Origin: Blastocatellales bacterium
Lineage (GTDB): Bacteria; Acidobacteriota; Blastocatellia; RBC074
Direction of reading: 5' to 3'
DNA: 64,000 nt
Assembly (NCBI GenBank): GCA_050187295.1
Contig: JBFWXQ010000006.1
Span: forward strand, 110,296-174,295
In this document: positions 2 through 14,460 of the stretch, piece after piece
Numbering within the stretch: position 1 is the first letter of the stretch
Layout of the letters: each line of letters starts with the position of its first letter
Translations under genes and position numbers: made by a program
Notes under the pieces: generated by a model
The model's database searches: none
Told to the model about the DNA's origin: nothing
The model's input: only the letters and a program-made list of their open reading frames with translations

Positions 2-2182
2 GACAGTCAAAACGTCGAACACAAAGCGCCACTCTTTTTTGTCTCTGATCAGCAAATCAACTATCTAATTCCATCACGCGCGGCTTTGGGTCCGGCTCAG
101 TTGACGATTACAAATTCCAATGGCGCGCTTTCGCGCGGCGAATTGCAATTGGTCAGTTCATCGCCAGCGATCTTCACTACCTCATACACCGGGCGCGGAT
201 TGCCCGTCGCGCTGACGACTTACGACGGAGTTTTTTATGAAGGCGTGACCAATCCGGACGGTTCGGCCAAACCTGTCAACCCCGGCAGTCAATGGCGTCC
301 TAATTATCTGCTGCTGTTTGGAACCGGTTTCAGCAATGAGGCCAACCTGCGAGTCCGCATAGGCAATCAGGAAATCACGCCGCTGTATGCCGGAGCGCAG
401 GGATCTTTCGCCGGACTTGATCAAATCAATTTGATGTTGCCTGCCGATATGCCCGGCGGCATTGCCGACGTGAGGCTGATTTCAAACGGACGCGCCAGCA
501 ACATCGTTCAATTGCGCATCGCCGGTGAAGCAATAGCTGCACAAAACGGACTGACCGAAGACGATGTGCGAACCATCATCGCCCAGGCTGTCGGCAAAGC
601 GCAGCAACTTGGAATGCGCATCACCGTTGCCGTGTTGGACAAGGAAGCCAACATTCTGGGCGTTTTCAAAATGACCGGAGCGCGCAACGACATCAAAATC
701 GGTTCAACCAATCTGTTGACAGGCCAACCGGGCAAGCCGGCCGACCCTGATGGTCTGAACGAATTTGTCGTCCCGCTGCTGAACCCGGATGGAACCTTTG
801 TTGCGCCACCGGGTATTTTGCGGGACGGAGCATCGCTTGCGGCGATTTCAAAGGCTGGCACTTCGGCGTTTTTCAGCACACAGGGCAATGCATTCACGAC
901 ACGAACCGCCAGCTTCATCATTCAGGAACATTTTCCTCCGCAGGTGCAGTTCCAACCCGGCGGCCCTCTGTTCGGCGTGCAGTTTTCTCAATTACCTTGT
1001 TCTGACGTGAAGATTCCAAATCTGCCGTTGGGGCTTTCAGGCGATCCAGGCAGCGCACCGATTTACAAAAATGGAATTGCCGCAGGCGGGGTCGGCATTG
1101 AAGGCGATGGTTTGTATTCGATTGACATTGATCCGTCGGATCAGGACCAGCTGCCTGAAGAAATTATCGCAGTTGCGGCAACGCTGGGATTTGAGCCTCC
1201 GACATCTATTCGTGGCGACCAAATCGTTGTTGACGGAGTTCGCCTGCCATACGTCAATGCCGCTCAAACCGGTGGAAACGCTCCGGCGTTTGGGAGCTTG
1301 CCCGGAACCATAGTGGTTCCGATTCGCGCAGCACAGCCATCTCTATTCACCCCGCTGACGCTTGGAGGAGTTCCAGGCAGGATTGATTCACGCTTCTTCC
1401 CGTTCAAAGCTGGCGCGGCCAACAATGGGCAGAATCTGACCGCAGCCGATGTCAATACAATCATCACTCAGGCTGCACAGCAGGCTTACCGAACCCGTGC
1501 CGCTATTAGGCAACCAATTGGTTCACCTGCGGAAGTCAACATTACTGTTACCGATGTCACCGGCACCGTGTTGGGAATATTCAGCACGCAGGACGCGCCG
1601 ATTTTCGGTTTTGATGTCAGCGCGCAGAAAGCTCGCACAGCGGCTTATTTCAGCGGCGCAACCGCTGGATCGCAATTGCGGGCGGCAGAAGGCGGCAGGT
1701 TCGCCAAGTTTGTTGATGCCGCGGCTGCAGACGGTTTGAAAATGGACGGGTCTGTTGCTTTCAGCGACCGCGCCAATGGTTTTTTGAGCCGTCCGTTTCT
1801 TCCTGATGGCATAGATGGAACCGCGAATGGCCCGTTTTCCAAACCAATCAATATCTGGTCTCCATTCAATAACGGGTTGCAGATTGCATTGGTTAAAACT
1901 GCATTGGGCAGAATCCTGAGCGGATTGCCCGTAACGAGTTGCACGGCTATTCCCAGTCTTCCGAATGGAATTCAAATCTTTGCCGGCAGCGTGCCGCTTT
2001 ATAAAAACGGAGTGCTGGTGGGAGCCATCGGCATCAGCGGCGACGGCATTGATCAGGATGACCTCATTGCCTCGGCGGGCAGTGTTGGCTTTGAAGCTCC
2101 TGCGGCAATCCGCGCCGATCAGATTTTCGTGCGAGGTGTGCGACTGCCTTACGTCAAGTTCCCTCGCCATCCGAATTTGTGA
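2..2182 (+). CDS. 5'-truncated protein: Solibacter-type (TIGR03437-like, IPT/TIG) domain followed by two GlcG/HbpS (DUF336) heme-binding domains
   Basis: The frame is open from the window edge (DSQNVEHKAPLFFVSDQQINYLIP...). It has the Soli_cterm-like motifs APLFFVS..QINY and YAGAQGSFAGLDQIN. Two GlcG-like repeats follow: AISKAGTSAFFS...APIYKNGIAAGGVGIEGDG and SAQKARTAAYFS...VPLYKNGVLVGAIGISGDG. Confidence 0.75.
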   Translation, partial: DSQNVEHKAPLFFVSDQQINYLIPSRAALGPAQLTITNSNGALSRGELQLVSSSPAIFTTSYTGRGLPVALTTYDGVFYEGVTNPDGSAKPVNPGSQWRPNYLLLFGTGFSNEANLRVRIGNQEITPLYAGAQGSFAGLDQINLMLPADMPGGIADVRLISNGRASNIVQLRIAGEAIAAQNGLTEDDVRTIIAQAVGKAQQLGMRITVAVLDKEANILGVFKMTGARNDIKIGSTNLLTGQPGKPADPDGLNEFVVPLLNPDGTFVAPPGILRDGASLAAISKAGTSAFFSTQGNAFTTRTASFIIQEHFPPQVQFQPGGPLFGVQFSQLPCSDVKIPNLPLGLSGDPGSAPIYKNGIAAGGVGIEGDGLYSIDIDPSDQDQLPEEIIAVAATLGFEPPTSIRGDQIVVDGVRLPYVNAAQTGGNAPAFGSLPGTIVVPIRAAQPSLFTPLTLGGVPGRIDSRFFPFKAGAANNGQNLTAADVNTIITQAAQQAYRTRAAIRQPIGSPAEVNITVTDVTGTVLGIFSTQDAPIFGFDVSAQKARTAAYFSGATAGSQLRAAEGGRFAKFVDAAAADGLKMDGSVAFSDRANGFLSRPFLPDGIDGTANGPFSKPINIWSPFNNGLQIALVKTALGRILSGLPVTSCTAIPSLPNGIQIFAGSVPLYKNGVLVGAIGISGDGIDQDDLIASAGSVGFEAPAAIRADQIFVRGVRLPYVKFPRHPNL

Positions 2183-4248
2183 AAATGAAACGCCTCGTTG
2201 TTATTTCCTTCGTTCTTGTCATTGGCGCGATGTGGTGCGGTTACAATCTGCTGGCCGCACCCAACGCGCAAAGATCGCGCTCCGCCTCTAGTTCGAAGTT
2301 TTCCAAATTCACTCACAAATCACACAAAGGTCGTGTCAAAAGCTTGATTGCCAAAAACAAGACAATCGAGCTTGATTGCGCTTACTGTCATGGCACAACC
2401 GTCAAAGACAAACTTGGCAAAGACCAACACGACATCGAAGTCATAGGTTATCCCAGCCATCTGAAAGGAGCGCAGGACGCCAAAACACATTCATCTTGCA
2501 CCGAATGTCATATTTTTACTGGCGCCGGGACACGGCAGGAAATGTGCCTGATCTGTCATGAAAAGACTTCATTTGATTCGAAGGTGATGGCGACCAACAT
2601 CCTGCGCTTTCCGAATCCAGACGGCGGCGGCGTGTCGCAGTTTTACGATTACTTTTCACACGGCGACCACGTTGATTTTTACGACCAGTACGCGACGCAA
2701 ACGCCGCTGAAAGACCGGATCAAATTTTACGATTCAAAAGCTGCTGACCCGAAAGCCAACAAGGGTTTGGACAAAAGCAAGTTCGAATGCTCTTCCTGTC
2801 ACACGATGAACACGGCTCCGGTGGCAGTCGCCAAAATCAACTTCGCCGCCGGAGTGAAAATGAGCGCTCCAGGTCACCCTGAATGCTTCGTCTGCCATTT
2901 CGATCCGAAAATCGTTTCTCCGCCGAAACCCGACAAACCGAATCCGAAAAACACCTTTGCGACGAATTGCACCGGATGCCATCAGGACACCGGCAAATCG
3001 TTGAAAGATGGTCGTCCGGTTATGGGTTCTGAGTTGGCGGTTCACTGGTTCGCGCGGCAAATCGTCAACACCGAACTCAATCCGTCGAAACAAGGCAAAA
3101 AATCGCCGCTGCCGTTCAGCCACAAAACTCACGATGACGCCATTGGCAAAAGCGTCGCAGATTGTTTGTCTTGTCACGCGACGGCCAAAACGGCCAACAC
3201 GCTGAAAGATTTTTATCTGGAAGATCGCAAGACGAAGGAGAAGCAACCGGTTGCTGTGGGCTGCGTGGATTGCCACAAGAAAGACGGCATGCAGATGAAG
3301 ATCGAAGCGGCAGTGACGCTTGAAACCGCCAGGTGTAATTACTGTCATTCGCTGGCGACGATCAAGGCTTTCGGCGCGAAAGGCGTTCCGCTGCCGCCGC
3401 CAAGCCATTTCGGCAAGAAAGCGATTCAACCCGCGCCTGCGGTTGCGACAGTTCCAACAACTACGCAACCGACAACGCCTGCTCCGCAAACGCCAGCAGC
3501 GCAACCGCCCAAACCTTCGCCAGCGCCGACGCCTGTAACTGCGCAACCAACGCCAGCGCCAACTCAACCGGCCGCGACGCCTAAACCTGAAACGAAACCG
3601 GCGACGGCGCAAAACACAACTCCGGCTGCGACGCCAACGCCAGCGCCGCCCAAACCTTCACCTGCGCCGGCGCCCGTGGTTGCACAACCGGCAACCACGA
3701 CGCCACCACCACCGACAACCGCAACTCCAGGCGCTGTAAAACCAGCGCCGACAGGAATCATTCGTCTGGGCGACCCGAACGAAAGTCCGCATTGGGGACA
3801 ACATAACAAATGGGGTGTGGTGGAAAATTTCAATCACGGAAATCACATCAAACCATCATATTCCCAGCGTTGCGAGGACTGTCACCATACAAACAAAGAC
3901 GCGCGAGTCGAGGCCGTATTGAAATGCATTACCTGCCACAAAGAACTAGGGAACGCGGATACTGACAGCAAGGGGGGCGGAGTCAGCGTTGAAGATGCTT
4001 ATCACGGCATTTCCGGAAGTTCGAATACCAACAACAAGGCCGGATGCATCGAATGTCACAAAACTTATCGCGACGAAAAAAACGCGGACACCAAGGCTCC
4101 GATCAGCCCATGTTCAGCCTGCCACACGGAAAAGCAGGCCATGATTGACCGGCGCAAGCTCAAACCCAACCGCGGCAGTTGGGCTAACAGGAATGAAATT
4201 GCTATGCTGCAATGGGTTTATGATTTCCGCTTGAAGGCCCGACGCTGA
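2179..4248 (+). CDS. Exported multiheme c-type cytochrome with 13 CxxCH motifs (9 + Pro/Thr linker + 4)
   Basis: N-terminal signal peptide. Motifs CAYCH, CTECH, CLICH, CSSCH, CFVCH, CTGCH, CLSCH, CVDCH, CNYCH precede the linker; CEDCH, CITCH, CIECH, CSACH follow it. F(T/S/N)HxxH distal-ligand motifs are of c3/c7 type. The GTG start overlaps the upstream TGA. Confidence 0.9.
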   Translation: MKMKRLVVISFVLVIGAMWCGYNLLAAPNAQRSRSASSSKFSKFTHKSHKGRVKSLIAKNKTIELDCAYCHGTTVKDKLGKDQHDIEVIGYPSHLKGAQDAKTHSSCTECHIFTGAGTRQEMCLICHEKTSFDSKVMATNILRFPNPDGGGVSQFYDYFSHGDHVDFYDQYATQTPLKDRIKFYDSKAADPKANKGLDKSKFECSSCHTMNTAPVAVAKINFAAGVKMSAPGHPECFVCHFDPKIVSPPKPDKPNPKNTFATNCTGCHQDTGKSLKDGRPVMGSELAVHWFARQIVNTELNPSKQGKKSPLPFSHKTHDDAIGKSVADCLSCHATAKTANTLKDFYLEDRKTKEKQPVAVGCVDCHKKDGMQMKIEAAVTLETARCNYCHSLATIKAFGAKGVPLPPPSHFGKKAIQPAPAVATVPTTTQPTTPAPQTPAAQPPKPSPAPTPVTAQPTPAPTQPAATPKPETKPATAQNTTPAATPTPAPPKPSPAPAPVVAQPATTTPPPPTTATPGAVKPAPTGIIRLGDPNESPHWGQHNKWGVVENFNHGNHIKPSYSQRCEDCHHTNKDARVEAVLKCITCHKELGNADTDSKGGGVSVEDAYHGISGSSNTNNKAGCIECHKTYRDEKNADTKAPISPCSACHTEKQAMIDRRKLKPNRGSWANRNEIAMLQWVYDFRLKARR

Positions 4249-4294
4249 CCAAAGAATTCGCCGCGTTACTTGACGACCTCAAACACGCATCACA

Positions 4295-5296
4295 ATGCAG
4301 ATGGAAAAAATAAAACTCACGCTCGCGCTCTGCGGCCTGACCGCTTGCTTTGCTCTCTTCAATCCTTTTGACGCACGCGGTCAGCAATCAAAACCTGCTC
4401 CAACTCCAGTTCAAGACGCGCCGACATCAACGCCAACACCTCCCAATTACGAGAAGTTCACGCATCAATCGCACTTGGGCGTCATCAAAGTGCCCGGCAC
4501 GTTTCAAGCGCACGAATTGAAATGCGATTCGTGTCACGATCAGCGTGATTTGATGAAAGACCTGGTGCCGACCACCATTCGAAACAAAAAGGAACTGCTT
4601 AAATTTCCAGGTCACAAAGCCTGCGTCGAATGCCACATCACGCAATTCACGGCTCTGCCGCAGCAAACCTGCACCATCTGCCACGAAGTAAAACAGGGGC
4701 TGAGCGCCAGACCGCCGCAACGCGACTTTCCTTATCGTTACGATTTCAACGCTTTTTTCGACGCCAAACAGCACGAAGCTCACATCACATACAACCTGCC
4801 ATCGGGCGCCAGGACCGATTGCAATTTCTGTCATCAACAATTGGATAAACCCGCATTGGTTGGCGTTGGCGCGCACCCGGCCTGTTATGTTTGCCATTCA
4901 CCCACAAGCACGGACAAAAAAGCCGCGTCAAAATCCGGATGCAACGTTTGCCACACCGAACAAACTTCAAACGATCCGTCCGTGCTGCGACAACCGAGCA
5001 AGGCTTACGACGCAAAATTCACACATAAAACTCACGTCGGTTATGCCAACGGAGATTGCATGGCCTGTCATACGATCAGCGGGGGCTATAACCAGATTTC
5101 GCCCGCCACGTTGAAAATCACCGCTCACGCCGTGCCGGATCAGCGCAATGGCAAAGGCTGTTTCAGTTGTCACGACGGCGGCAGGCATTATGGCCGAATC
5201 GTTTTCAGCGGGGAACCAGACAACGCCGGAGGCAGCGCTTGCAGCAAATGTCATTCTCGCAATGATTACAAAGTCTACGCCAGATCAGGTTTCTAA
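4295..5296 (+). CDS. Exported nonaheme c-type cytochrome (three c7-like triheme units)
   Basis: Signal peptide. Motifs CDSCH, CVECH, CTICH, CNFCH, CYVCH, CNVCH, CMACH, CFSCH, CSKCH, plus FTHQSH and FTHKTH. Confidence 0.9.
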   Translation: MQMEKIKLTLALCGLTACFALFNPFDARGQQSKPAPTPVQDAPTSTPTPPNYEKFTHQSHLGVIKVPGTFQAHELKCDSCHDQRDLMKDLVPTTIRNKKELLKFPGHKACVECHITQFTALPQQTCTICHEVKQGLSARPPQRDFPYRYDFNAFFDAKQHEAHITYNLPSGARTDCNFCHQQLDKPALVGVGAHPACYVCHSPTSTDKKAASKSGCNVCHTEQTSNDPSVLRQPSKAYDAKFTHKTHVGYANGDCMACHTISGGYNQISPATLKITAHAVPDQRNGKGCFSCHDGGRHYGRIVFSGEPDNAGGSACSKCHSRNDYKVYARSGF

Positions 5297-5330
5297 CCCT
5301 GTCCATCTTTAACAATCCGGAGAACTGTTG

Positions 5331-7040
5331 ATGAAAATCCGTGCCCTGCTGTCTTTGTTACTGTTTTATTCGTTGCTAGCTCTGAAACCGGTCAAAGCTC
5401 AAGTCGAACCTGCCGACATCGTTTTCAAAAACGGCAACGTTTACACCGTCAACGACGATCAACCGAAAGCCGAAGCCATCGCCATCAAATACGGACGCAT
5501 AGTTTTCGTTGGTTCGAATGCGGACGTCAAAAAATACGAAGGCAAGAAAGTCACGAAAATAATTGACCTGAAAGGCGCGACTGTCGTGCCGGGTCTGGCC
5601 GATGCTCATTATCATTTTTCCGGCGTCGGATTCCGCGAAATGAATCTGAATCTGGAAGGCACCACCAGCCTCGACGATTTTCTGGCCAAAGTGAAAGCTC
5701 GTGTTGACAGAGCCAAACCTGGCGAATGGGTGACTGGTCGCGGATGGATAGAAACTTTCTGGAAGCCGCAGGCTTTTCCGACGCGATGGGACCTGGACAA
5801 GATCGCTCCGAACAATCCTGTTTACCTGACCCGAGCCGATGGTCACGGAGCAGTCGCCAACAGCGCGGCGCTGAAAATCGCCGGAATTGATAAAAACACT
5901 GAAAGCCCTTTCGGCGGCGAAATCATGCGGGACAAAGAGCGCGGCGAACCGAACGGCATGCTGTTAGACCGCGCTCAGGGACTGGTAGGTCGCCACATTC
6001 CGGCTTCAACCAAGGCCGACTTGGAACAGGCGTTGTTGCTGGCCGACAAACGCAGCATTTCGCTGGGCTGGACTCAGGTGCAGGACGCGGGCGTCAGTTG
6101 GGATCAGATCGAGTTGATGAAGAAACTGTTCGGCGAGCAGAAATTGAAAATCCGATTGTACGAAGCGATTCGCGGCCCCGGCGCCGACGCTCAGCGTTTG
6201 TTGCGCGAAGGCGCTCAGATCGGTCTTTACGACGGCAAGCTGACCGTTCGCACTATCAAGGTCAGCATTGACGGCGCGCTCGGATCAAAAGGCGCTGCAC
6301 TGCTGGAAAATTACGCCGATCACGACACCAACGGCTTTCTGACTTTCAAGGAAGATCAAGTCCTGCCGATGCTCAACGAAGCGTTGAGAAAATCCATTCA
6401 AGTCGAAGTCCACGCCATCGGCGACCGCGCCAACCGGACGATCCTTGATTGGTACGAAACCGTCTTCAACGAAGTGCCGATGATCCAGCGGATGGATCGC
6501 AATCCTCCGCGATGGCGTGTCGAACACGCGCAGATTCTCGATCCGGCGGATATTCCGCGCTTTGCCAAATTGGGAGTTATTCCTTCCATGCAACCTTCGC
6601 ATGCAATCGGAGATTTGCATTTTGCTCAAAGCCGTTTGGGGATGAAACGATTGGCGGGCGCTTACGCGTGGCAAAGTCTGATTAAAACCGGCGTGGTCAT
6701 TGCCGGAGGCTCAGACGCTCCGGTCGAACGCGGCGAACCGATGATCGAATTTTACGCGGCGGTCACTCGCAAAGATCAGAAAGGATTTTCCGGCGAAGGC
6801 TGGCATCCGGAAGAAAAAGTCACGCGCGAGCAGGCGCTGAAGATGTTCACGGCCTGGGCGGCTTACGCGGCCTTCGAGGAAAAACAACGCGGTTCGATTG
6901 AACCTGGAAAATGGGCTGATTTGACGGTTCTGTCAGCGGACATCATGCAAATTCCCGAAACAGAAATCTTGAAAACTCGCTGCGTCATGACGGTCATTGG
7001 CGGCGAGGTCGTCTTCGATTCAACCGGCGGAAAAAAATGA
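5331..7040 (+). CDS. Secreted metal-dependent amidohydrolase (Amidohydro_3/YtcJ-like)
   Basis: Motifs VVPGLADAHYH, VEVHAIGDRA, RVEHAQ, GGSDAPVE and GSIEPGKWADLTVL. Signal peptide present; GGAG RBS lies 8 nt before ATG 5331. Confidence 0.88.
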   Translation: MKIRALLSLLLFYSLLALKPVKAQVEPADIVFKNGNVYTVNDDQPKAEAIAIKYGRIVFVGSNADVKKYEGKKVTKIIDLKGATVVPGLADAHYHFSGVGFREMNLNLEGTTSLDDFLAKVKARVDRAKPGEWVTGRGWIETFWKPQAFPTRWDLDKIAPNNPVYLTRADGHGAVANSAALKIAGIDKNTESPFGGEIMRDKERGEPNGMLLDRAQGLVGRHIPASTKADLEQALLLADKRSISLGWTQVQDAGVSWDQIELMKKLFGEQKLKIRLYEAIRGPGADAQRLLREGAQIGLYDGKLTVRTIKVSIDGALGSKGAALLENYADHDTNGFLTFKEDQVLPMLNEALRKSIQVEVHAIGDRANRTILDWYETVFNEVPMIQRMDRNPPRWRVEHAQILDPADIPRFAKLGVIPSMQPSHAIGDLHFAQSRLGMKRLAGAYAWQSLIKTGVVIAGGSDAPVERGEPMIEFYAAVTRKDQKGFSGEGWHPEEKVTREQALKMFTAWAAYAAFEEKQRGSIEPGKWADLTVLSADIMQIPETEILKTRCVMTVIGGEVVFDSTGGKK

Positions 7041-7045
7041 GGCGA

Positions 7046-8401
7046 TCATTTCGCCGCTTCAACCAATTTGAATGAATCCAGCCAGAGCATGCCGTTGATC
7101 GGACACGGAGGTTCAGGGCATGGTTCGCGTTGCAAACGAACGGTGACGGCTTCGGTTTTGGGGTCGGTGGTGAATTTTATTTGCTCAATGCGCCAGTCGC
7201 TGCTGCCCAAAGGCCATTTTTCCGCCGCAATCCGCAACCGCCTGGGATCGGCGGCATCAATCACTTCGACAATCGGCATGCTCAGACTTCGCAGGTCTTC
7301 GGCCTTCACAGCGTAAGTCAGGACGTAGCTGGTGGAAGATTTGGCTGGAATGGTTTGCGAAAAAATGGTCATCGGAATGTTGTCGCGGGCGTCGAAGCCG
7401 ACTCGCAAAGTTTGCTGGCCTTGTTTCGGGTCTTTGCGATCGAGTGAAACCTTGACTCCACCGATCAGCGCGATTCGCCAGGTCAGAAACGGCGTTTGCG
7501 AATTGAGCGTCAGAGGCATTTCAAAATCGCCGTTTGATAACAACGATCCGGCATCAACCGCCGGATGATTTTCAGCGGGAACGCCCGACCAGACTTCGTA
7601 GGCCGCCGCCATTCGCCCCGCGCCGATCAGAGCTGTGGAAACTTGCTCGGCTTCGCGTGGCTTGCGAATGGATGCGTTTCTCCAAACATTCATCGCATCT
7701 TCAACGCGATCGTGCCTGATCAAAAAAATCGCCAGTTCGGCCTGCGCTTCCCTGGCCGGAGCCAGCGCCGAGGCAATCGCCTGCCCATCTCCCTGATAAG
7801 CGTCCCAGGCATAATCCAACACCAAAGGCAACGCCAACGGTCGGCTGATTAGCGCTTGCCGAAAATGCGCGAAAGCCGATTCACGATCTCCGGTTCGTAA
7901 CAGGAAGTTGCCCATCGCCCACTGAGGATCAAAATGCCTGGGCGCCAGCGTCATGGCTTTTTCCAACGCCGAGCGCGCTCCCTGTTGATCCCCGCTGCGT
8001 TCCAGCGCGCGGCCCAAGGCCATCCAGCTTCGATAATCCGCCGGACTGATTTTCGTTGCCAAACGGAAATCTTCCAGCGCCAGATTCATTTGCTCGTTGT
8101 TCTGTTCATTGGTGGCCGACGCCAAATAAACCGCTCCGCGCCCCATTCGCAACAATGGGTCTTCTCCCGAATAATGGACCGCAATGTCCGCGCCTTGCAA
8201 TTGCGCCGCTGGTTCCAGATTCGGATTGCGCAAAACGAATGTCATCACGCTGTCGCCAATGGCAAAGCGAATGACAGGCCAGGAAAGCGCCGCCAGTCCA
8301 ATGGTTGCGACAATGAAAAACAGCGCTCGAAAAACGACTGGACGAAGTGGGATGGTGAACATAACGGTTGGAAATCTACTCAATCCTCCGCCGCTCGGCA
8401 A
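7046..8401 (-). CDS. Membrane-anchored TPR protein with C-terminal carbohydrate-binding-module-like (CBM4/9-like) domain
   Basis: N-terminal hydrophobic helix; TPR-like repeats (WMALGRALERSGD..ARSALEKA; WAMGNFLLRTGD); LLSNGDFE...WLDSFKL beta-sandwich signature. The start may be ATG 8362. Confidence 0.65.
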   Translation of the reverse strand: MPSGGGLSRFPTVMFTIPLRPVVFRALFFIVATIGLAALSWPVIRFAIGDSVMTFVLRNPNLEPAAQLQGADIAVHYSGEDPLLRMGRGAVYLASATNEQNNEQMNLALEDFRLATKISPADYRSWMALGRALERSGDQQGARSALEKAMTLAPRHFDPQWAMGNFLLRTGDRESAFAHFRQALISRPLALPLVLDYAWDAYQGDGQAIASALAPAREAQAELAIFLIRHDRVEDAMNVWRNASIRKPREAEQVSTALIGAGRMAAAYEVWSGVPAENHPAVDAGSLLSNGDFEMPLTLNSQTPFLTWRIALIGGVKVSLDRKDPKQGQQTLRVGFDARDNIPMTIFSQTIPAKSSTSYVLTYAVKAEDLRSLSMPIVEVIDAADPRRLRIAAEKWPLGSSDWRIEQIKFTTDPKTEAVTVRLQREPCPEPPCPINGMLWLDSFKLVEAAK

Positions 8402-8479: not shown

Positions 8480-8752
8480 TAGGTCACCCGTTCAGGGAAA
8501 TCACCGTAAATGAATGAAAAGCTTTTTATTGCGCGGTTTCCCGTGCGGTTACGGGCTGGCTTTTTTCAGTCGCTTCGCCGACTTGCGATTTGATAACAGT
8601 CTCGGCGAATTTCTGATCAATCTCCCCGCTCAAGAGTGTCCGCCAAACTTTTGGGAAAACGCTGGCCGATCATCCGCTGAAAAAGATTGTCCGCGCCTAA
8701 CATTCTAATGTTGACGGCCGGGCCTTTTACCAGCGCGATTGAAAGGAATCAT

Positions 8753-9841
8753 ATGCTGCGGAAAAAGTTCATATCATCAGCAATTACCCTTTTCATTTTC
8801 CTGTTTTCCACCTCACTGCTTTGCGCGCAGAATCCTGCGCCTGTTCTGACGGCGGACAATCCCGCGCAGCCCGTCAAACTTCAAGAGGCGCAAACGGGTT
8901 TCCCAGATGCCGTGCGCGGAGCGGATCAGATTTATCGTGTCGGTCCTGGCGATTTGCTGGACATCAGAATCTTCAATCATCCGGAACTGAGCGGAGAACG
9001 CCGCATCAACGAAGCCGGACGCATCCGCCTGCCGTTCATCGAAGAACTGCAGGCAGCCTGTTTGACCGAAGCTGAAATTGCGTCGCAGATCACAGAAAAA
9101 TACAAAAAATTTTTACGCTTTCCTCAGGTGGATGTCCTGGTGAAAGAATACAAAAGCCTGCCCGTGGCCGTCATCGGTTCTGTCAATCAACCGGCACGGT
9201 TTCAGTTGCAACGCCGCGTCAGATTACTGGAACTGCTGACTTACGTTGGCGGCCCCAGCAATCGCGCGGGCAAGATCGTCCATGTCATACACAGCAACGA
9301 TTACGATTTCTGCCAGGTCAACCAGGCTCTGAATCAACAGACTGCGGCTCAAAATTCCGCCAACGTCGAAACAGAAAATCCCGAAGGCGGAACGATTTCA
9401 ATAACAACGGCACTGAGCACTGTGAATCTGTACGATGTTCTGTCCGGCAAATTGGACGCCAATCTTTACATTCAGCCCGGCGACATCGTCAGCATTCCCG
9501 AAGCCGATCAAATTTATGTGACGGGCGCGGTCAATCGTCCGGGCCCTTACGCTCTGACGACCAAATTGACTTTGACTCAGGCTGTGGCGATGGCCGGGGG
9601 AGTCAATACCGAAGGCGCAAAGAATCGCGTTCGCCTGATTCGTCAGGACGGCGAATCTGATAAACGCACGGAAGTCGTTTACAACCTGGAAGACATCAAC
9701 AAGCGAAAAATTAAAGATGTTGATTTGTTGCCCAACGACATCATCGAAGTGCCAAATTCAACGATGCGATTGGCGGCCAGAAACCTGTTGGGGGTCAGCA
9801 TCAACATGCTCAACACGCTTCCATTCTTTATTTTACGGTGA
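8753..9841 (+). CDS. wza: Polysaccharide export outer-membrane protein (Poly_export + SLBB domains)
   Basis: Motifs YRVGPGDLLDIRIF, VIGSVNQP, YIQPGDIVSIP, VTGAVNRPG and LLPNDIIEVP. AAGGA RBS before ATG 8753 (the ORF track starts at 8687). Confidence 0.85.
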   Translation: MLRKKFISSAITLFIFLFSTSLLCAQNPAPVLTADNPAQPVKLQEAQTGFPDAVRGADQIYRVGPGDLLDIRIFNHPELSGERRINEAGRIRLPFIEELQAACLTEAEIASQITEKYKKFLRFPQVDVLVKEYKSLPVAVIGSVNQPARFQLQRRVRLLELLTYVGGPSNRAGKIVHVIHSNDYDFCQVNQALNQQTAAQNSANVETENPEGGTISITTALSTVNLYDVLSGKLDANLYIQPGDIVSIPEADQIYVTGAVNRPGPYALTTKLTLTQAVAMAGGVNTEGAKNRVRLIRQDGESDKRTEVVYNLEDINKRKIKDVDLLPNDIIEVPNSTMRLAARNLLGVSINMLNTLPFFILR

Positions 9842-9908: not shown

Positions 9909-12194
<2,286 letters not shown>

Positions 12195-12534
12195 GAGCGC
12201 GGATCAGTTACAGCGTCAGTTTTTTCAGACACTGAATATCTGAATCAGAACAATCACCGTGGGATCAATCGTTGTCTTTCACTCCGGCAATCTCAGACCG
12301 ATTGTCATATTGTCCTGTCTTTAGTTGTTCCGATTTGGCAAGCGGCGATGATCTTTTGCGGGATCAGCGCCGGCCTTTATCCGCGCTCTCCTTTCGCATT
12401 TCTTCAACAATTCGACGCTGCCTCGACACGAGGTTTCCTTTGAAGGTTGCGGATGCGACGACATCTCGTTGGATACGTCTACCCGGACATTGATTGTCGG
12501 CATCGAAACTTTTTTCCATCTTTTACTCAATTCT

Positions 12535-14460
12535 GTGTGCGGAATATTCGGCATCGTCAGCGATAAATCGCCCGATGAAATAAATCACGCTTTGCGCGCG
12601 GCGACGAATGCGATCAAGCATCGCGGCCCGGATGATGAAGGCATCGAAATCATCCATCGCGCAGACGATGGCTTAATTGCGGGCTTTGCGCATCGCAGGC
12701 TTTCTATCCTTGACCTTTCGCCCGCCGGTCATCAGCCAATGCGCGATCAAAGCACTGGCAATTGGATCACCTACAATGGAGAGGTTTTCAATTTTCGCGA
12801 AGTGCGCCAGCGTCTGGCCGGTCGCGGTCTGAGCTTTAATTCCGACAGCGACACCGAAGTCGTTTTGAAAGGTTTTGGAAAGTTCGGTCTGGAAGCCATA
12901 GCCGATTGGCGCGGAATGTTCGCCTTCGGTTTCTGGGATGCCGGATCGCGGCAATTGACGCTGGTGCGCGACCGATTGGGAATCAAGCCGCTTTATTATT
13001 ATCACGACGGAAAAACCTTTCTCTTTGCCTCTGAAATCCGCGCGCTGCTGGCCAGCGGAATGATTCCGCGAAAACTTTCCGCCGCCGCGCTCGACGGTTT
13101 TCAGGCGTTCGGTTCGATCCAACAGCCGTTGACTATAATCGAAAATGTTTACTCGGTGCTGCCCGGCCACGCGCTGACGTTCAGCAACGGTGAAATCATC
13201 AGCAAACCATACTGGCAATTGCGCGCCGAAAGGTCATCGCCCGAAATCAACGACGAACGCGCGCTCAGCGAAGAGGTTGGCGCGTTGCTGCGAGAAGCCG
13301 TGCGTTTGCGAATGGTGTCGGATGTTCCGGTTGGAATCTTCCTGAGCGGCGGCATTGATTCCAGCGCGGTGGTGGCAATGTTGCGACATGCCAACGCCAA
13401 TCGCCTGAAAACTTTCTCAGTCTGTTTCACCGAACAGGAATTCAGCGAGCGAGAACACGCGCAGCGTGTCGCCAGAAAATATGAAACCGATCACACGGAA
13501 GTTTTGCTGACAGCGAACGATTTGCTCGAAAGTTTGCCATCGGCATTGAACGCAATGGATCAGCCGTCCGTTGACGGCATCAATTCATATGTCGTGTCGG
13601 AAGCGGCTTCACGCGCCGGATTGAAAGTCGCCATTTCAGGTCTGGGCGGCGACGAAGTCTTCGCCGGTTATTCGTTTTTCAAAACCATTGCGCGCGATGA
13701 ACATCTGAGAGGATTGATTCAATCGGTTCCCTTCGGATTGCGTCGAGCGGCGGCCACTGCAATTCAATCAGCATCTCGCGGCAATCGCGCCAGTAAACTG
13801 GGCAGCTTGCTTGGAAGCGAACGACTCGGCGAACACGCGGTCATGCTGCACCGCCAACTGTTCACGGAAGGGCAGCGGCTGAAGCTTTCAAAAACCGACC
13901 ATTCGGATTCGGTCAAGCGTGACCTTGCAATGATCGCGGCCTGGACTGCGCAGCGTCTGGCGAATTGCGCCGATGCCGATCCGGTCAATCAGGCTTCGGC
14001 GTTGGAACTCAGCGGTTACCTGGCCAATACGCTGTTGCGCGACACTGACACAATGAGCATGGCTCACGGATTGGAAGTGCGCGTGCCGCTGATTGATCAT
14101 CTGGTGGTGGAACGTTTGCTGGCGATTCCCGGCTGGCAGAAATTGCGCGAAGGCGATTCGAAATGGCCGAAATGGCTGCTGGTTGCAGCGGCTGGCGATT
14201 TGCCGCGCGAAATCGTCTCGCGATCAAAACGCGGTTTCGAACTGCCGTTCAAACACTGGCTGCTCGGCGCTTTGCGCAATCAGGTTGAAACTGTTTTATG
14301 CGATGAGAAGTCCGGCGTTTTGGGAAGCTGGCTGAATCCGTCGGCAGTTCGAAAAGTCTGGGAAGATTTCACAAACGGACGCGCCAGTTGGTCGCGCGTC
14401 TGGAGTCTGTACGTTTTGAGCGAATGGACAAGATTGAATCTGCAAAACCGCATCTGGTGA
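12535..14460 (+). CDS. asnB: AsnB-like glutamine-dependent amidotransferase (polysaccharide-locus paralog 1)
   Basis: GTG start followed by CGIFG gives the catalytic N-terminal Cys. Other motifs: HRGPD, HRRLSILDLS, YNGEVFN, RDRLGIKPLY, LSGGIDSS, SGLGGDEVFAGY. Confidence 0.88.
   Translation: MCGIFGIVSDKSPDEINHALRAATNAIKHRGPDDEGIEIIHRADDGLIAGFAHRRLSILDLSPAGHQPMRDQSTGNWITYNGEVFNFREVRQRLAGRGLSFNSDSDTEVVLKGFGKFGLEAIADWRGMFAFGFWDAGSRQLTLVRDRLGIKPLYYYHDGKTFLFASEIRALLASGMIPRKLSAAALDGFQAFGSIQQPLTIIENVYSVLPGHALTFSNGEIISKPYWQLRAERSSPEINDERALSEEVGALLREAVRLRMVSDVPVGIFLSGGIDSSAVVAMLRHANANRLKTFSVCFTEQEFSEREHAQRVARKYETDHTEVLLTANDLLESLPSALNAMDQPSVDGINSYVVSEAASRAGLKVAISGLGGDEVFAGYSFFKTIARDEHLRGLIQSVPFGLRRAAATAIQSASRGNRASKLGSLLGSERLGEHAVMLHRQLFTEGQRLKLSKTDHSDSVKRDLAMIAAWTAQRLANCADADPVNQASALELSGYLANTLLRDTDTMSMAHGLEVRVPLIDHLVVERLLAIPGWQKLREGDSKWPKWLLVAAAGDLPREIVSRSKRGFELPFKHWLLGALRNQVETVLCDEKSGVLGSWLNPSAVRKVWEDFTNGRASWSRVWSLYVLSEWTRLNLQNRIW

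Follow-up and report, generated by a model that had tools for sequence, protein, structure and literature searches.

A tandem-GlcG protein linked to multiheme cytochromes in a Blastocatellales bacterium and its conserved barrel and decaheme partners

Why would the gene for a protein that automatic annotation at present calls merely a 'heme-binding protein' head a pair of genes for multiheme cytochromes c? The question is raised by the beginning of a 64,000-nucleotide (nt) stretch of DNA from a Blastocatellales bacterium (GenBank assembly GCA_050187295.1, contig JBFWXQ010000006.1; G000:C6:110296-174295 in our numbering of an assembly of 7.49 Mb in 75 contigs), which is referred to here as the window. 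Three open reading frames (ORFs) follow each other on the same strand: a gene for a tandem-GlcG protein, GlcG2 (gene 1), which is open at its 5' end, a gene for a cytochrome with 13 CxxCH motifs (gene 2) and a gene for a c7-type cytochrome with nine such motifs (gene 3). ORFs, motif counts and domain matches all confirm this arrangement, which an earlier note on this DNA had described. Combining gene content, folds, linkage, co-occurrence and co-transcription, we consider it probable that the three genes constitute the periplasm-facing middle of a dispersed, widespread and uncharacterised trans-envelope multiheme electron-transfer system and that GlcG2 is tied to the outer module of this system.

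Gene linkage and conserved partners

The 22 CxxCH sites of the two cytochromes include no variant motif, and both their number and the 46-nt gap between genes 2 and 3 agree exactly with what the earlier note had given. Because just 20 ORFs with at least three CxxCH motifs are present in the whole 7.49-Mb genome, the adjacency of two multiheme ORFs is far beyond chance. The complete GlcG2 gene (G000:C6:109997-112477) starts 301 nt ahead of the window and encodes 826 amino acids (aa; P0001). A GTGA overlap between genes 1 and 2 had also been proposed. In the nearest relatives gene 2 begins at an ATG (MKRL...) located 3-4 nt past the stop codon of gene 1, and the equivalent ATG is found here at window position 2185, 2 nt past the TGA of gene 1; the overlap is one possible reading, and this ATG is the likely start of gene 2. 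Whichever start is used, genes 1 and 2 are tightly coupled in this sub-lineage; in more distant relatives they are ~70-160 nt apart.

Logan contigs from two small metatranscriptomes map with 100% identity to all three genes and to both junctions. Contigs 27-186, 344-526 and 874-1119 lie in the GlcG2 gene, contig 2122-2458 crosses the junction of genes 1 and 2, contig 4143-4298 crosses the gap between genes 2 and 3, and contigs 4597-4824 and 4913-5082 lie in gene 3. The contigs that cross both junctions support a three-gene transcript. Scans of the locus for promoters and terminators gave no signal beyond shuffled expectation. Near-identical DNA is present in landfill, activated-sludge, wastewater and plastisphere metagenomes. 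Judged by its relatives, the genome is of the Blastocatellia type within Acidobacteriota.

Which of these genes belong together in other organisms? In species-representative genomes 585 GlcG2 loci were confirmed, and the best 80 of these 585 were examined; partners were identified by tblastn with neighbours and counted in the 42 loci that are fully flanked, i.e. by at least 8 kb on both sides. These 42 loci span Acidobacteriota, Alpha- and Gammaproteobacteria, Nitrospira, Phycisphaerae, Oligoflexia/Bdellovibrionales and Entotheonellaceae. An ORF with at least four hemes lies within 9 kb of GlcG2 in 41 of them, a barrel-like protein is encoded within 38, a decaheme cytochrome with LVIVD repeats likewise within 38, and homologs of the 9-heme and 13-heme cytochromes of the window are found in 14, all of which are from Acidobacteriota. 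Thus, the conserved partner of GlcG2 is the combination of the barrel and the LVIVD decaheme, and the c7-type cytochromes are an addition specific to the class. The earlier note had called for a comparison of double-DUF336 proteins and c3/c7 multihemes across genomes; a conserved linkage to multihemes is what we observe, whereas the linkage to the c7 type is restricted to the minority just given. The more general notion of an uncharacterised extracytoplasmic multiheme redox system is supported. The clustering of a barrel gene with multihemes that characterises porin-cytochrome conduits is likewise present in the relatives; here the barrel is encoded outside the window.

The barrel partner measures ~600-770 aa and has no Pfam match except for a weak N-terminal CarboxypepD_reg match in one copy from Acidobacteriota; homologous barrels of relatives end in an aromatic residue. 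The decaheme partner measures ~1300 aa and combines 10 CxxCH motifs with the LVIVD repeats. In Proteobacteria and Nitrospira the genes are arranged on one strand in the order [tetraheme] - FAD/cyclic nucleotide monophosphate (cNMP)/Fe-S protein - membrane protein - decaheme - GlcG2 - barrel - LVIVD decaheme. The arrangement in Acidobacteria is different: transcription of the barrel and the decaheme diverges from that of GlcG2, and GlcG2 stands first in a row with the c7 cytochrome genes, after which come genes for an FHA-anchored heptaheme and a cNMP/4Fe-4S protein.

The co-occurrence of GlcG2 and the LVIVD decaheme was analysed in 301 genomes of Acidobacteriota. GlcG2 is present at E<=1e-30 in 27 of these genomes and the decaheme in 32, and all 27 are among the 32 (Fisher p=9e-34); the two genes usually lie less than 10 kb apart on the same contig. 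Of the five genomes that apparently have the decaheme only, three contain a diverged GlcG2 next to it, and in the final tally the decaheme is present in 30/30 genomes with GlcG2 and GlcG2 in 30/32 genomes with the decaheme.

In the genome under study the partner genes are dispersed over other contigs (Table 1). The earlier note had expected that a porin or a gene of the NrfD/CymA kind might lie upstream of the window. A porin partner does exist, i.e. the barrel encoded on contig C61, but it is not upstream: the adjoining 8 kb, which we read and annotated, contain neither a porin nor a quinol dehydrogenase and encode divergent M16 peptidases, a B12-binding protein, an enoyl-CoA hydratase and a sigma-54 activator, the last ~5.6 kb upstream on the opposite strand and beyond four unrelated genes. 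An NrfD/CymA-like quinol oxidase partner was found in none of the loci examined. The C61 barrel has no Pfam match; its structural model (predicted local distance difference test score, pLDDT, of 61) contains ~18-20 long strands and matches AlgE (E=2e-14) and Occ/OpdK porins. A gene for a 316-aa ClpP-like SDH-type serine protease/NfeD-like protein (G000:C61:21634-22584, minus strand; equivalent to L083:9634-10584) splits the barrel from the decaheme, and in relatives such as L004 the two are directly adjacent. The input module has the appearance of an NAD(P)H/Fe-S/membrane protein on the cytoplasmic side combined with an FHA-anchored multiheme cytochrome.

Table 1. Coordinates of the three-gene locus, its downstream neighbour and the dispersed partner genes (positions refer to the window unless a contig is named)
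Feature	Position	Strand	Basis or remark
GlcG2 (tandem-GlcG) gene, 3' 2181 nt	2..2182	+	ORF call, homologs, transcript contigs
TIGR03437 (Soli_cterm) Ig-like domain, residues ~101-273	2..520	+	NCBIfam, 85.5 bits vs cutoff of 29
GlcG/DUF336 domain 1, residues ~284-525, enlarged by insertions	551..1276	+	Pfam PF03928, AlphaFold2 (AF2), Foldseek
Hyperconserved loop GPLFGVQFSQLPCSD, residues 421-435, includes Cys433	962..1006	+	Conservation in 78 sequences
GlcG/DUF336 domain 2, residues ~579-826	1436..2179	+	Internal repeat; phmmer to EfgA, PduOC and ORFY at 745-795
13-CxxCH cytochrome c gene (gene 2)	2179..4248	+	Motif count, Pfam, start-codon comparison, transcript contig
Pro/Thr/Ala-rich linker, ~125 aa, between nine-heme and tetraheme modules	3391..3768	+	Translation
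9-CxxCH c7-type cytochrome gene (gene 3)	4295..5296	+	Motif count, Pfam, paralogy, transcript contigs
Amidohydro_3 metallohydrolase, 570 aa, signal peptide	5328-7040	+	31 nt after the cytochrome genes
Barrel, 635 aa, and LVIVD decaheme, 1345 aa	contig C61		Decaheme 78% identical to that of L004
cNMP-binding 2x[4Fe-4S] protein, 815 aa	contig C29		C-terminus matches membrane protein of proteobacterial clusters
FHA-transmembrane-heptaheme protein, 498 aa	contig C29		
Fer4/pyridine-nucleotide oxidoreductase (flavoprotein)	contig C29		~3 kb from the FHA-heptaheme and cNMP genes

Domain architecture of GlcG2 and the two cytochromes

GlcG2 consists of an N-terminal hydrophobic anchor or signal just outside the window, the Ig-like TIGR03437 domain and two DUF336/HbpS-like modules. 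The N-terminal region gives filamin/Ig-like matches in Foldseek, and this part of the protein is variable, its place being taken in relatives by other Ig-like modules or a lipoprotein linker. Because lipoboxes precede glycine-rich linkers in the GlcG2 proteins of Proteobacteria, these are probably outer-membrane lipoproteins. The HbpS-like family of Pfam (PF03928) matches GlcG2 in three stretches with 57.2 bits (cutoff 25), the two GlcG halves repeat each other (48% identity over 97 aa, E=2e-21), and each module comprises ~240-250 aa, i.e. ~100 aa more than ordinary GlcG proteins. In an AF2 model built from 27 sequences (overall pLDDT 79.9, domain 1 mostly 85-97) both modules have the DUF336 fold, with target template-modelling scores in Foldseek of 0.86 for EfgA (6bws), 0.80 for PduOC with heme (5cx7), 0.79 for ORFY (2a2l) and 0.67 for HbpS (3fpw). 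The family is large, with >8000 matches among 90%-identity clusters and 410 clusters at 50% identity (E<=1e-30).

Residue conservation was evaluated in an alignment of 78 family members that come from several phyla. In domain 1, M324, K384, T387, R401, Q408, Y455, Y472 and E487 are conserved in at least 97% of the sequences, and the same is true in the loop for G421 through S429, L431, C433 and D435. Each domain has one Cys at an equivalent position (C433, 97%; C747, 95%), and these two are the sole cysteines of mature GlcG2. The start of the conserved loop PGGPLFGVQFSQLPCSD was left unplaced by AF2, with a pLDDT below 50 for residues 412-426. Neither the Cys pair nor the loop is evident in partial alignments to EfgA, PduOC and ORFY. 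This pattern of conserved Met, Tyr and Cys residues together with the loop suggests a putative binding site for a partner or a ligand and not a recognisable heme pocket.

Two further observations concern the part ahead of the GlcG domains. With the TIGR03437 domain of gene 1, tblastn gives another 66 matches in this genome (29-46% identity), spread over more than 25 other contigs, and these copies are a very large paralogous family of secreted proteins. Many of the proteobacterial GlcG2 lipoproteins (L048, L049, L053, L054, L063, L065, L066, L070, L072, L073, L075, L079, L080 and L082) carry a C-x-G-x-C motif, e.g. CDGSC or CTGAC, just ahead of the first GlcG domain; the motif, a possible small disulfide loop or metal site, is not in the GlcG2 proteins of Acidobacteriota.

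The product of gene 2 is composed of a signal/anchor, a nine-heme c7/Mtr-like module, the linker listed in Table 1 and a c3-like tetraheme module. Gene 3 encodes a paralog of the nine-heme module (24% identity) with a signal peptide and a possible LTAC lipobox. The Pfam matches are Cytochrome_C7 (59 bits), Mtrc-MtrF_II-IV (54 bits) and Cytochrom_CIII (49 bits) for gene 2, and Cytochrome_C7 (51 bits) and Paired_CXXCH_1 (35 bits) for gene 3, which also matches the MtrC/MtrF domain II/IV model. With PF14522 and PF02085 above cutoff, CxxCH motifs, and 31 and 20 His residues in genes 2 and 3, respectively, which suffice for bis-histidine ligation, the two proteins belong to the c7/c3 cytochromes and in these respects resemble the GSU1996-family c7 proteins of Geobacter and the c3/HmcA multihemes. 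A TIGR04257 match stayed below its cutoff, and the OmcA/MtrC decaheme model TIGR03507 scored 22.7 against a cutoff of 209. The window cytochromes differ from solved c7/c3 cytochromes by a very low sequence similarity: comparison with solved structures gave only weak c7-type matches, the best being to 3ouq, a 'cytochrome c family protein' chain that we take to be a fragment of GSU1996. They also differ by the 13-heme (9+4) fusion, which is found only in close relatives (L009, L012), others having a 9-heme protein of ~400-450 aa; the C-terminal tetraheme of gene 2 shows marginal pairwise similarity (E=6e-4) to a separate 190-aa tetraheme of other Acidobacteria, of which it may be a fused copy. 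The Pro/Thr-rich tether between the heme modules of gene 2 recalls PgcA.

A proposed electron-transfer chain and its alternatives

From these data we propose a chain in four steps: (i) a cytoplasmic NAD(P)H flavoprotein and the cNMP-binding 2x[4Fe-4S] protein with its membrane domain, both encoded on C29, would provide the electrons, (ii) the membrane-anchored FHA-heptaheme cytochrome, also encoded on C29, would accept them, (iii) the nine-heme and the 13-heme c7-type cytochromes of the window, soluble or tethered, would act as a periplasmic relay in which the flexible Pro/Thr/Ala tether would let the tetraheme head of the 13-heme protein reach its partner, and (iv) the AlgE/Occ-like barrel in the outer membrane and the ~1345-aa LVIVD decaheme, presumed to be a beta-propeller and like the barrel encoded on C61, would form the outer module. 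We infer that electrons run outward through this chain to a final acceptor. GlcG2, exported and dedicated to the barrel/decaheme module, would serve it as a subunit or as an accessory factor; a pseudo-dimer of two DUF336 folds, it would be tethered to the membrane via its hydrophobic anchor in the present organism and via a lipid anchor in Proteobacteria. Most likely GlcG2 docks onto the barrel/decaheme via the hyperconserved loop, and a small ligand or cofactor may be bound at an inter-domain site marked by Cys433 and Cys747. A more far-reaching version appears doubtful to us. In it, GlcG2 would itself be a new kind of non-cytochrome redox or catalytic subunit that holds a cofactor or substrate between its two domains, with C433, C747 and the loop as its active site. 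Together with the barrel and the propeller decaheme it would then represent a new class of NAD(P)H-driven electron export in common aerobic bacteria of soil, sludge and marine habitats, with the reduction of Fe(III), Mn or organic matter, or the formation of extracellular reactive oxygen species, as possible tasks.

How does this chain relate to known conduits? The GlcG2 system is of the porin-cytochrome kind with a distinctive, uncharacterised tandem-DUF336 component. Literature searches on LVIVD proteins with multihemes, DUF336/GlcG proteins with multihemes and FHA proteins with multiheme cytochromes yielded only one relevant preprint, that on ptdABCDEFG (Elbon, Stewart and Glass, bioRxiv 10.1101/2023.11.21.568154), which is described there as an unexplained porin-cytochrome cluster. 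Besides a decaheme and a tetraheme, this cluster has an FAD/NAD(P) oxidoreductase, a cNMP-binding 2x[4Fe-4S] protein and a membrane protein that resembles ferric reductases; its outer part is listed as a porin (PtdB) and PtdA, a pentaheme that carries a beta-sandwich. The preprint mentions neither a DUF336/GlcG protein nor an LVIVD decaheme. Compared by domain architecture only, a set of proteins resembling PtdC, PtdE, PtdF and PtdG flanks GlcG2 in proteobacterial and Nitrospira loci (L046-type) and is found on C29, and the taxa overlap in Alpha- and Gammaproteobacteria, Nitrospirales and Planctomycetes. The outer modules differ, that of the present system consisting of GlcG2, the barrel and the LVIVD decaheme; no five-heme ORF lies beside the barrel in the GlcG2 loci inspected, ptd being compared by its description only. 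Our reading is that the chain proposed here is related to the ptd cluster and fed by NAD(P)H.

With MtrCAB, MtoAB and PioAB and with the Pcc and Ext conduits of Geobacter, the system shares a barrel with multihemes on the periplasmic and outer sides and a periplasmic multiheme feed, and the matches of genes 2 and 3 to the Pfam MtrC/MtrF domain II/IV model add to the likeness to Mtr. These matches and those to c7 are generic, and no homology to MtrB/PioB was found for the barrel or to MtrA/MtrC for the cytochromes. The barrel without a Pfam match resembles the 18-stranded AlgE/Occ channels, the large cytochrome has LVIVD repeats, the tandem DUF336 protein is an obligate companion, and the input looks like NAD(P)H, Fe-S and FHA-cytochrome components, with no quinol dehydrogenase of the CymA/NrfD type in the loci examined. 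The clusters for extracellular electron transfer EET1 and EET2 described for Acidobacteriota in a 2026 peat preprint (10.64898/2026.05.27.727921), the text of which contains none of the words 'barrel', 'propeller', 'decaheme' or 'heme-binding protein', could not be equated with the GlcG2 system.

The earlier note had explained the locus differently, i.e. by a tandem GlcG protein that binds heme b and forms the catalytic or sensing end of the heme wire made of the downstream c7-type cytochromes. The tight coupling and co-transcription of GlcG2 with the 13-heme gene, the HbpS-like Pfam match, the presence of PduOC:heme and HbpS among the structural neighbours and the many conserved polar residues in both GlcG domains would fit this explanation, but the ligand that it calls for is missing. 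In PduOC, heme is bound by His18 of the first helix from two subunits (PMC4923194). PduOC residue 20 corresponds to GlcG2 residue 597 in the phmmer alignment, and hence His18 to A595, an Ala shared by at least 90% of 27 aligned sequences; the equivalent position of domain 1 is A300, with Ala in at least 97% of the 78 sequences. No His is invariant among these 78 sequences, H410 being conserved in 90% and replaced by Asn in the rest. A heme site of the PduOC type was therefore rejected for both domains. Moreover, heme binding is not a family-wide property of DUF336 proteins, because EfgA is a formaldehyde sensor (PMC8153426) and many PduO homologs lack His18 (PMC4923194), and the 9/13-heme homologs that would form the wire accompany GlcG2 in only 14 of the 42 loci. 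On this evidence the claim that the GlcG domains bind heme is unsupported, and we regard a heme-b terminus as unlikely. A role modelled on HbpS, a DUF336 protein outside the cell with heme-binding and heme-degrading activity that signals to SenS/SenR (PMC3754957; see also the summary in PMC8153426), would have GlcG2 scavenge or degrade heme or iron, escort heme, or sense heme or redox stress for a regulator. GlcG2 is likewise exported, is always near heme-rich genes, has the same fold and contains the motifs A..KA.TA..F and G..P....G..VGAIG.SG that are also found in HbpS, PduOC, EfgA and GlcG. These proteins are single-domain, whereas GlcG2 fuses two enlarged domains and adds Ig-like or lipoprotein N-termini, and its gene context of cytochromes and barrel contrasts with the two-component system, microcompartment or glycolate genes that accompany single-domain DUF336 proteins. 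An insertion-rich fused pseudo-dimer of 826 aa without a His ligand is also unlike the HbpS octamer of small subunits, and no sensor kinase or response regulator was found in the operon or in the clusters of relatives, as judged from the annotated genes flanking GlcG2 in the three loci examined with Pfam. The tracking of one specific decaheme in 30/30 genomes would be unexpected for a general role in heme stress, and we judge an HbpS-like function to be quite improbable.

The adjacency could finally be incidental, GlcG2 being an unrelated secreted protein that precedes two cytochrome genes in this lineage. The amidohydrolase gene next to the locus illustrates that synteny alone can be common to close relatives, and the barrel/decaheme and the input modules are indeed on other contigs in this genome. 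Linkage across several phyla in differing gene orders, the p-value of the co-occurrence, transcript contigs that cross the junctions and the scarcity of ORFs with at least three heme motifs make this explanation very improbable, and the conservation data already contradict it.

Several points also weigh against the outward-directed chain that we favor. The heme chain could run inward and oxidise an external donor, and the polar residues conserved in GlcG2 would be in keeping with an enzyme that acts on a soluble substrate, too. The model of the C61 barrel is of moderate confidence, and the metatranscriptome contigs may include DNA. Moreover, GlcG2 does not adjoin the barrel/decaheme in this genome and in its nearest relatives (L003, L009), which have this split in common, and the functional link here therefore rests on co-occurrence and not on operon structure. 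In two genomes of the same family in our sample GlcG2 is still beside the decaheme, and the dispersal is therefore recent.

If the outward-directed chain is correct, a large set of bacteria, most of them aerobic, would possess a dedicated route for reducing power from the cytoplasm to the cell surface that is distinct from Mtr, Pcc and Cyc2. Its carriers would include Blastocatellia, Sphingomonadaceae, Lysobacterales, Arenicella, SAR116 and Nitrospira. No other marker of the system is as distinctive or as easily recognised as the tandem-GlcG protein. The ligand of this protein, once identified, would assign a function to a widespread branch of DUF336 and could reveal the substrate of the system, with a bearing on the cycling of iron, manganese, humic substances and reactive oxygen in soils, sludge and oxygen-deficient waters.

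Neighbouring genes and minor observations

The amidohydrolase gene downstream of gene 3 was considered as a fourth operon member and rejected: its synteny is limited to the two closest relatives, and no contig of the two metatranscriptomes maps to it. Convergent with it is a gene for a 451-aa TPR protein (window 7046-8401, minus strand). A gene further on, for a Wza-like polysaccharide export protein with Poly_export and two SLBB domains (8687-9841, plus strand), may start an exopolysaccharide locus.

On contig C29, a Kelch beta-propeller (L084:10163-11923, plus strand) and an NHL-repeat beta-propeller (11995-13947, minus strand) are encoded ~1 kb and 2.8 kb from the genes for the cNMP/Fe-S protein and the FHA-heptaheme, with a TIGR03437 copy nearby; a link of these propeller proteins to the electron-transfer system is possible. 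On contig C6, 8-22 kb upstream (G000:C6:~88000-102600), a run of minus-strand ORFs encodes proteins of 452, 166, 163, 455, 184, 1400, 341, 266, 157 and 378 aa, the N-termini of which, judged from the ORF list, look like those of phage-tail-like sheath, tube and baseplate proteins; the run may be a contractile injection system or a prophage tail.

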